Part shown: piece after piece, positions 40,784 through 42,465 of the stretch
Position numbering within the stretch: the stretch's first letter is position 1
Layout: every line of letters starts with the position of its first letter
Source: a bacterium
Lineage (GTDB): Bacteria > Margulisbacteria > Marinamargulisbacteria > CANKTL01
Length of the DNA: 42,465 nt
Assembly (NCBI GenBank): GCA_947486405.1
Contig: CANKTL010000003.1
Location: forward strand, 1 to 42,465
Reading direction: 5' to 3'
Program-made: the position numbers and the translations under genes
Notes under the pieces: generated by a model
The model's database searches: none
What the model was told of the DNA's origin: nothing
What the model saw: the letters and a program-made list of their open reading frames with translations, nothing else

Positions 40784-40859
<76 letters not shown>

Positions 40860-40860
<1 letters not shown>

Positions 40861-40925
40861 GCCATCATTCAAAAATTGCCCCCTCCACGAGAAATTCGCC
40901 TGGGAACAATTTTTAAACGATGGCT
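40860..40925. repeat. 19-bp imperfect inverted repeat (hairpin) abutting the tRNA 3' end
   Basis: AGCCATCATTCAAAAATTG (40860-40878) versus CAATTTTTAAACGATGGCT (40907-40925): 17 of 19 complementary. Confidence 0.8.
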
Positions 40926-41002: not shown

Positions 41003-41032
41003 TTGACAAACCTGTTTGCACTCAAGGACAAT
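41003..41032 (+). promoter_or_regulatory. Putative promoter of the crRNA-like element
   Basis: Perfect TTGACA (41003-41008), 18-nt spacer, GACAAT (41027-41032); predicted TSS near 41038-41040, where the closing stem begins. Confidence 0.55.
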
Positions 41033-41039
41033 TGATAGC

Positions 41040-41191
41040 GAGCCTTGGGGGTAACGAGTAGGTTCGATATGATTTCTACATTTGTAGATCCTAGCCTTGC
41101 GCAAATCGACCTAACAGAGGCTAAAGCTCCTCATTAATTTCTACTTTTGTAGATATAGATAGTAAATTTGGAGCCATTACCCCCAAAGCTC
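41040..41191 (+). ncRNA. Putative structured crRNA-like small RNA enclosing two Cas12a handles
   Basis: Closing stem GAGCCTTGGGGGTAA/TTACCCCCAAAGCTC (14 of 15), inner stem TAGGTTCGAT/ATCGACCTA, two TCTAC-N4-GTAGA hairpins. Confidence 0.55.
41071..41154 (+). CRISPR. Type V-A mini-array: degenerate handle, 29-nt spacer, full 36-nt repeat
   Basis: GATTTCTACATTTGTAGAT (41071-41089), spacer CCTAGCCTTGCGCAAATCGACCTAACAGA (41090-41118), GGCTAAAGCTCCTCATTAATTTCTACTTTTGTAGAT (41119-41154); matches the Cas12a repeat consensus AATTTCTACTnTTGTAGAT. Confidence 0.85.
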
Positions 41192-41303
41192 AGTTAGTAA
41201 GCTCCGTTTATATTTGCCAATATAACTATCCTTTAAAACAAAGCCTACATTTTGAACAATTAAATTTTAATAGATAATTTTTTGGATGATAGTGAATAAA
41301 CTA

Positions 41304-41332
41304 TTTACAACAAGCGGCAAGGGTGCTACTTT
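41304..41332 (+). promoter_or_regulatory. Putative cas12a promoter
   Basis: TTTACA (41304-41309), 17-nt spacer, TGc-TACTTT (-10 at 41327-41332); RBS AAGGAG at 41380-41385. Confidence 0.55.
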
Positions 41333-41391
41333 TCCGTCAGTCACCCGCCCTCCACGAACACGGCACAGATTTAATCTAAAAGGAGAAAAAT

Positions 41392-42465
41392 ATGAAAAAA
41401 CCCGAAAAGATACACGAATCCAAAACCAACCTTTATTCGGTTAGTAAAACGCTGCGCTTCAAACTAAAGCCTATCGGGGAAACCGAAATTACCTTTGATT
41501 CTAGCAAAATTCGCGACGAGGATGAAAAGCGAAACGTGGCGTACCAGGAAGTCAAAAAAATGATGGATGTGCTACATCGGAATTTCATTAACGACACACT
41601 GAATAGCATCCGTCTCAATTCTGACTTACTTGAAAAATATATCGGCTTGTTTCAGATAAAGGACAAGGACGAGAAACAAAAAAAAGACCTAACGGACACT
41701 CAATCCAAACTCCGAAAAGAAATCCATTTAAAATTCACAGAAGAGGGGCTCTATAAGCATTTGTTTGATAAAGAAGTTCTCCAACTACTCAAGGACGATA
41801 TTGAACGGATTCGCAATGACAAGCACATCAGCCTAAGCCCCAATGATGCTTTGGACTGCATTAACCAGTTTGATAAATTCACTACCTATTTTCGGGGCTT
41901 CTTTGAAAATCGAAAAAATATGTATTCTCATGACGAAATACATACCAGCGTGACCCACCGAATCGTTAACGAAAACATCCCTATTTTCTTGCAGAACCAA
42001 AATACGTTTCAAAAATTGAATTCAAAATACCCTGAAATACTTTCTAAGTTTGAAGAAAAGCAATTCAAACAAATCCTCGACAAATTCAAAATGGATACCT
42101 ACCCTCCTTTAGCGTCTATTTTTGAAAATGATTCTATCAACCGCATCCTAGATCAAAATGGTATCGATTTTTACAATGCCATTCTGGGTGCTTACAAAGA
42201 GGATAACAAGATTAAATCCATCATCGGATTAAACCAATTAATCAACCAAGAATGCCACCAAACTGGGGACAAAACTATCGGTAAATTATCTAAATTAAAA
42301 AAACAGATTCTTTCAGATATCGGATCCATATCCACCCGTCCAGAACCCTTTGTTACTGACAGTGATATGTATGTAGCGGTCGCCAAATTCTACGAAATCA
42401 GTCGCGATTCATTTTCAAATTTAGAACGGGTTATAAGCTCATTAGCGGAAGGGCAGCTCCCAACA
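41392..42465 (+). CDS. cas12a: Type V-A CRISPR effector Cas12a (Cpf1), N-terminal 358 aa, runs off the window end
   Basis: Hand translation shows no stop codon. Motifs TNLYSVSKTLRFKLKPIGET, DEKRNVAYQEVKKMMD, FTTYFRGFFENRKNMYS, HRIVNEN, GIDFYNAILG, GLNQLIN and LKKQILSD are the WED-I/REC1 motifs of Cas12a. Strong RBS and adjacent V-A repeats. Confidence 0.96.
   Translation, partial: MKKPEKIHESKTNLYSVSKTLRFKLKPIGETEITFDSSKIRDEDEKRNVAYQEVKKMMDVLHRNFINDTLNSIRLNSDLLEKYIGLFQIKDKDEKQKKDLTDTQSKLRKEIHLKFTEEGLYKHLFDKEVLQLLKDDIERIRNDKHISLSPNDALDCINQFDKFTTYFRGFFENRKNMYSHDEIHTSVTHRIVNENIPIFLQNQNTFQKLNSKYPEILSKFEEKQFKQILDKFKMDTYPPLASIFENDSINRILDQNGIDFYNAILGAYKEDNKIKSIIGLNQLINQECHQTGDKTIGKLSKLKKQILSDIGSISTRPEPFVTDSDMYVAVAKFYEISRDSFSNLERVISSLAEGQLPT

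Follow-up and report, generated by a model that had tools for sequence, protein, structure and literature searches.

A probable CreR-type guide gene upstream of cas12a in an uncultured Margulisbacteria lineage

The closest described relatives of the element considered here are the CreR RNAs of type V-A CRISPR-Cas loci, for which autorepression of Cas12a and its relief by crRNA or AcrVA proteins is already published (Liu et al., 10.1101/2023.03.10.532045). The account given there puts forward about a dozen V-A candidates and validates that of Moraxella bovoculi, in which an intact handle is accompanied by a site beside the -35 that is flanked by TTTA and partly matched by the guide, Cas12a-dependent repression in a reporter is about 33-fold, mutation of guide or target abolishes repression and compensatory changes keep it, and both crRNA and AcrVA proteins relieve it (10.1101/2023.03.10.532045). 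A further report describes the V-A architecture as a handle, a spacer-like guide (psiS) and a terminator, with a 10-nt match giving binding by EMSA and no cleavage; the Ruminococcus V-A CreR and phage CracrVA1 described in it each have a single handle, psiS and 3' hairpin, a TTTA PAM and about ten consecutive matched bases, and show binding without cutting (10.1101/2024.10.29.618823). The underlying logic, a short-match guide that turns the effector on its own promoter, is common to tracr-L of Cas9 (type II-A) and CreA/CreR of type I, as these are outlined in the literature, but effector, RNA architecture and PAM are all different there and the likeness to our locus is one of logic only.

We analysed a window of 42,465 nucleotides, the entire contig C3 of a 984-kb assembly that is 67% complete, at the end of which a cas12a gene begins (41392..42465, + strand, RBS AAGGAG at 41380-41385) and is cut by the contig end after its first 358 codons. 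Given that the mechanism is published for type V-A, this locus extends a known circuit and is not a new mechanism. The 358-residue product matches the Pfam REC1 family PF18501 at 1.7e-54, and its best homologues are 37-41% identical; the 92 longer homologues are all full-length proteins (92/92, 1,092-1,357 aa), whose names, where the source gives one, are Cas12a or Cpf1. A Cas12a effector would unite REC lobe, RuvC and Nuc domains in one protein of about 1,200-1,300 aa; here residues 1-358 only are on the contig, and the 67%-complete assembly contains neither the remainder of cas12a nor cas4/1/2 nor the main array.

As in the published description of M. bovoculi, a handle unit lies upstream of cas12a, and its psiS partially matches a TTTA site by a promoter, here a putative one. 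The unit in the window is a two-repeat mini-array on the + strand. Its degenerate repeat 1 (41054..41089) has a 5' half unrelated to that of repeat 2 and a handle-like 3' part, GATTTCTACATTTGTAGAT at 41071-41089, that retains a Cas12a-type hairpin. It is followed by a 29-nt spacer 1 (41090..41118) and by the intact 36-nt repeat 2 (41119..41154), with the handle AATTTCTACTTTTGTAGAT at 41136-41154, from the end of which 237 nt separate it from the cas12a ATG (41392). This handle is exactly that of a second genome of the class, G034, and against the handles of other loci differs in the loop only. The sequence 3' of repeat 2 reads ATAGATAGTAAATTTGGAGCC..., with no third repeat downstream, and begins with the spacer-like guide (psiS) ATAGATAGTAAATTTGGAGCCATT (41155..41178, +), the first 17 nt of which are ATAGATAGTAAATTTGG (41155-41171). 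Compared with M. bovoculi CreR as reported, the window has a full-length intact repeat where theirs is degenerate and adds the upstream degenerate repeat and 29-nt spacer; here the guide is encoded on the strand of cas12a, whereas in Moraxella the two are divergent. Spacer 1 was considered as a self-targeting guide and rejected, as its best TTTV-flanked seed in the 67%-complete assembly is only 5 and no self-target is found there.

The first-pass annotation of this DNA had called repeat 2 intact, and other sequencing runs bear this out. The assembly holds two copies of the repeat only, but in contigs of a DNA run (X4) and an RNA library (X7) position 41154 is connected back to 41116/41118 through 23 or 26 other letters, so that a true CRISPR array with this same repeat, identical to repeat 2, exists in related samples. 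An exact search of metagenome contigs with the 36-nt repeat gave 0 matches. The region is present in two DNA runs, X1 and X2, both of which are identical to the window there and offer no natural variants. In a single X4 contig, at depth 3, G replaces A at 41392, which changes the start codon from ATG to GTG. X7 is the one RNA library, of which contigs only were used; one contig covers 41538-41839 within cas12a and none covers 41172-41525, but the missing cover is uninformative, and DNA carry-over is possible.

Further upstream is a tRNA-Arg(ACG) gene (40784-40860), directly 3' of which a 24-nt inverted repeat, 83% complementary with an 18-nt loop (40860-40925), may be the terminator of the tRNA. 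In the Rfam search the tRNA alone reached its family's gathering score, two further matches lying far below theirs. Between the tRNA and the mini-array a promoter-like site, TTGACA-18-GACAAT (41003..41032, +), matches the consensus at 10 of 12 positions only and could drive the mini-array. A second inverted repeat, of 15 nt and 93% complementary, has its 5' arm at 41040..41054 (+) and its other arm at 41177-41191, and thereby encloses exactly both repeats, the spacer between them and 22 nt at the start of the guide. In the fold this pairing can be extended to about 18 bp, with a fold z-score of -3.0, and it could set the ends or the stability of the RNA. The long-range stem was rejected as a conserved feature: G034 has a 6-bp equivalent only, with a z-score of -1.4 against -3.0 in the window.

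The guide is predicted to target site B (41266..41289, +), which precedes the cas12a start codon by 126 nt. The PAM of this site, TTTA at 41266-41269, is followed by ATAGATAAT, which matches the guide contiguously over the seven PAM-proximal positions (seed ATAGATA, 41270-41276) and again at position 9, for 11 of 17 overall; a notional 20-nt protospacer ends at 41289. The coordinates and strings that the first-pass annotation gave for the guide, the handle and its three sites (A, B and C) are all correct on recheck, and the composition-preserving shuffles it proposed as a check argue for the match. Within the 220 nt from guide to ATG (41172-41391, both strands), a TTTV-flanked seed of at least 7 arises in 0.00145 of 20,000 dinucleotide-preserving shuffles of the region, in 0.00905 of 20,000 shuffles of the guide and for 0.00124 of 27,320 pseudo-guides (20-mers from the rest of the window), so that comparable PAM-plus-seed matches occur in 0.1-0.9% of nulls. 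Across the assembly one of the 40,594 TTTV sites has a seed of at least 7, and this is site B; a seed of 6 is found at three sites. The seed match at site B is not a product of chance.

Because no close orthologue was found in the collections, we turned to Cas12a loci as a class: among pattern matches to the 358-aa fragment, 0 of 84 were confirmed as close orthologues in genome contigs and 0 of 129 in metagenome contigs. An alignment of 15 full-length Cas12a proteins served as query, giving 584 confirmed loci in species-representative genomes, of which 80 were kept; 62 of these 80 yielded a handle consensus. Eleven of the 62 have a handle-like sequence at most 700 nt upstream of cas12a, among them L080, which is a real 8-repeat array. 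When the 20-24 nt 3' of each handle were compared with the region upstream of cas12a, nine of the ten standalone handles proved to have a contiguous match there (L010, L034, L042, L044, L046, L051, L076, L077 and L083), flanked by TTTA in all nine, with seeds of 11, 15, 9, 11, 9, 7, 9, 9 and 10 nt. The lone exception is L056, whose handle, 537 nt upstream, is doubtful. The observed seed was reached by none of 2,000 shuffles in eight of the nine loci, the ninth being L051 (P = 0.003), and among 108 mismatched pairs of guide and region the longest seed was 6, with 0/108 reaching 7.

The nine loci come from Bacteroidota, Bacillota, Campylobacterota, Moraxella and an alphaproteobacterial MAG, and as the two Moraxella species, Moraxella bovis (L046, seed 9) and M. 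equi (L083, seed 10), carry the same guide, they stand for eight independent lineages. In L034 and L046 the PAM is 0-6 nt from the -35 of a promoter matching at 11 of 12 positions, in agreement with the published account, and in other reference loci 11-46 nt separate the target from the ATG. Handle and cas12a are divergently oriented in Moraxella and in L051. Judged by its sequence, the window fits this class in its TTTA PAM and in the 126 nt between target and ATG, and its seed is among the shortest: its 7 nt is, with that of L051, the joint shortest of the ten cognate pairs, the rest having 9-15, and is shorter than the 9-10 nt reported for the validated cases.

A single related locus allows guide and target to be compared directly. 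Among 55 genomes of the class, G034 is the only other one with this handle or with a Cas12a, which is 36% identical. Its contig C83 (L086) carries the identical handle, ATTAATTTCTACTTTTGTAGAT, 6 nt after the end of a promoter-like site. The guide that follows, TACAGTTCTCAAATTTGTTGCC, aligns with that of the window, AAATTTG..GCC..CCCCCAA being common to both, and differs from it at seven of the first nine bases. Its target, TACAGTTCT, 176 nt 3', has a 9-nt seed and 13 of 17 matches overall and stands 12 nt before the TTGACA of TTGACA-18-TACCTT, a sequence similar to the candidate cas12a promoter of the window and, like it, below the threshold of the promoter scan. The PAM of this target is CTTA and not TTTV, strict TTTV giving a best seed of 2, and the 9-nt match is expected by chance at 0.0002 with an NTTV PAM or 0.002 with any PAM (5,000 shuffles each). 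With the guides swapped between window and G034 the seeds fall to 4 and 2 only. Each guide matches its own target and the swaps fail, so guide and target have changed together; the covariation that the first-pass annotation had named as a further check is present, with the caveat of the CTTA PAM in G034.

The handle contig of G034 (C83) is tied to the contig that bears its cas12a (C86) by homology, not contiguity, the end of C83 being about 90% identical over some 60 nt to the stretch directly upstream of cas12a on C86. Downstream of the putative promoter and ahead of cas12a, G034 has a small ORF with a strong RBS (L005 60-164, L086 1798-1866), of 34 codons on C86 and 22 on C83 and with no counterpart in the window; the copy on C86 has a stop codon overlapping the start codon of cas12a, a sign that the two may be translationally coupled. 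The 5' flank of degenerate repeat 1 in the window, ATATGATT, is similar to the flank of the G034 handle, and this hints at a single-handle ancestor from which the two-repeat form of the window arose.

An alternative is that the mini-array survives only as an inert remnant of the CRISPR locus or as a scar of recombination, the 7-nt match being a coincidence in AT-rich DNA. The shortness of the seed and the AT-richness of the region lend this some weight, as does a survey by Shmakov et al. (PMC10120712), which, in the part relevant here, counts about 56% of V-A loci as having standalone repeats, sees no conserved targeting pattern among these and suggests a role for them in recombination. Against it, the nulls stand at 0.1-0.9% with site B the single best site in the assembly, the same pattern is found in nine of ten other loci and in none of the 108 mismatched pairs, and guide and target covary between the window and G034. 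We therefore regard an inert remnant as unlikely, and favour the reading that the element is a functional CreR-type gene of a type V-A CRISPR-Cas locus, which we consider probable on the strength of its sequence.

The first-pass annotation had proposed that this CreR-type guide acts at three sites, and of these site B, with its seed of 7, stands up. Site A (41217..41237, - strand) has TTTA at 41237-41234 followed by AAGGATAGTTATATTGG and matches the guide at 12 of 17 positions in PAM register with a seed of 1; site C (41281..41301, +) has TTTG at 41281-41284 followed by GATGATAGTGAAT and matches at 9 of 17 (positions 4-9 and 11-13) with a seed of 0. Cas12a requires PAM-proximal pairing, and since neither has it, A and C are not credible Cas12a sites; nor do the reference loci have secondary sites, their second-best seeds being at most 3. 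The likeness to the guide is nevertheless beyond what shuffling yields (20,000 shuffles: P = 0.0026 for a site with at least 12 of 17 and a seed of at most 1, 0.0005 for a second-best site of at least 11 of 17, 0.007 for a third-best of at least 9 of 17), so the four sequences are related. Site A is a relative of the guide that is otherwise unexplained. It had been suggested in passing that A might be a hairpin partner of the guide in RNA, a role we rejected, as A is unpaired with the guide in both folds. Such seed-less relatives of the guide, and the bracketing inverted repeat, set the window apart from the described cases, and G034 lacks any multi-copy pattern of the A/B/C kind. They could be accommodated in a two-guide array with a graded operator, in which B together with A and C would tune Cas12a occupancy, the inverted repeat would fix where the RNA ends or how stable it is, and spacer 1 would serve as a second guide with a target outside the assembly. 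We think this elaboration improbable; were it true, the locus would be a CreR variant with a functional seed far shorter than in any validated case.

The position of a promoter near site B is a prediction. The -35 that had been placed at 41304 is present as a hexamer, TTTACA at 41304-41309, and it opens a candidate cas12a promoter, TTTACA-17-TACTTT (41304..41332, +), with TG two bases 5' of the -10 (TGcTACTTT, 41324-41332); the promoter scan made no call there, because the -10 TACTTT matches at 3 of 6 positions only. A second candidate, TTGAAC at 41252 with GATAAT at 41273, is likewise below the scan threshold, and nothing near site B reaches it. Relative to the -35 at 41304 the 20-nt footprint of site B stops 14 nt short. 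Compared with M. bovoculi CreR as reported, the target PAM is distal to the putative -35. At the other end of the predicted guide RNA, the centroid fold contains a hairpin, GGAGC..UUAC / GUAA..GCUCC, followed by the U-rich GUUUAUAUUU (41170..41215, +), which is a possible 3' end or terminator. This hairpin has 9 bp, interrupted, and is weak. The terminator scan called nothing on the + strand between guide and cas12a, and with no clear intrinsic terminator after the guide read-through into cas12a is possible. In this respect the window differs from Ruminococcus CreR and CracrVA1 as described, its putative terminator being weak and no phage copy turning up in an exact search of viral contigs with handle plus seed (0 matches).

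The absence of a called terminator between guide and cas12a, together with the placing of the region's best promoter match (10 of 12) upstream of the mini-array, would suit an action at the RNA level only, in which Cas12a cuts or binds the leader of its own mRNA, or the RNA soaks up Cas12a, with no DNA targeting; sequestration of the effector by such RNAs is among the proposals of Shmakov et al. (PMC10120712). We hold this to be distinctly improbable, as it leaves the PAM-flanked seed match and the covariation unexplained, and the centroid fold does place a hairpin and U-rich tract after the guide, while in G034 the promoter-like site ends just 6 nt before the handle. Least probable of all, to the point of being very unlikely, is that a DNA-binding protein uses A, B and C as its operators, all three sharing TTTR-nnn-GATAGT-like cores and A facing the opposite way to B and C, and that the guide is merely similar to them: the likeness among the four copies beyond chance and the inverted repeats I5, I7 and I8, which connect A with B, C and the guide, speak for it, but the multi-copy pattern is absent from the reference loci and from G034, the surroundings of the locus show no evident regulator gene, and the fit of the PAM in guide register would go unexplained.

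Returning to a CreR-type guide gene as the preferred reading, we infer its operation from the published system, step by step from transcription and processing to binding, repression and relief. The mini-array would be transcribed, and Cas12a would cut before the intact handle and retain handle and psiS as a guide, whose bases 1-7 (8 of the first 9) would pair with the TTTA-flanked site B over 41266-41276, just upstream of, or overlapping, the cas12a promoter. Because this pairing stops early (11 of 17), Cas12a is predicted to bind there without cutting, by analogy with the short match described in 10.1101/2024.10.29.618823, and in doing so would hamper transcription of its own gene; in this predicted binding without cleavage the window resembles M. 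bovoculi. Repression would be lifted once ordinary crRNAs draw Cas12a off or anti-CRISPR proteins inactivate it. The autorepression that the first-pass annotation put forward is thus supported in silico by the chance tests, by nine of ten other loci and by covariation with G034; its three-site elaboration is not supported.

Among the 15 listed of 116 full-text matches on Cas12a, no paper contained the word Margulisbacteria; the V-A candidate lists of the CreR authors lie outside that search. If functional, a natural seed of 7 nt would give tool builders a lower bound for useful binding by Cas12a. The window and G034 together provide a natural covarying pair of guide and target. The nine in ten found in an unbiased sample support the idea that a standalone V-A repeat upstream of cas12a is in most cases a self-targeting regulator, in contrast to the earlier survey (PMC10120712), which, as far as its account goes, saw no conserved targeting pattern. 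For the organism itself, our reading would bring the CreR circuit of Cas12a into an uncultured lake-water lineage that has been little studied.
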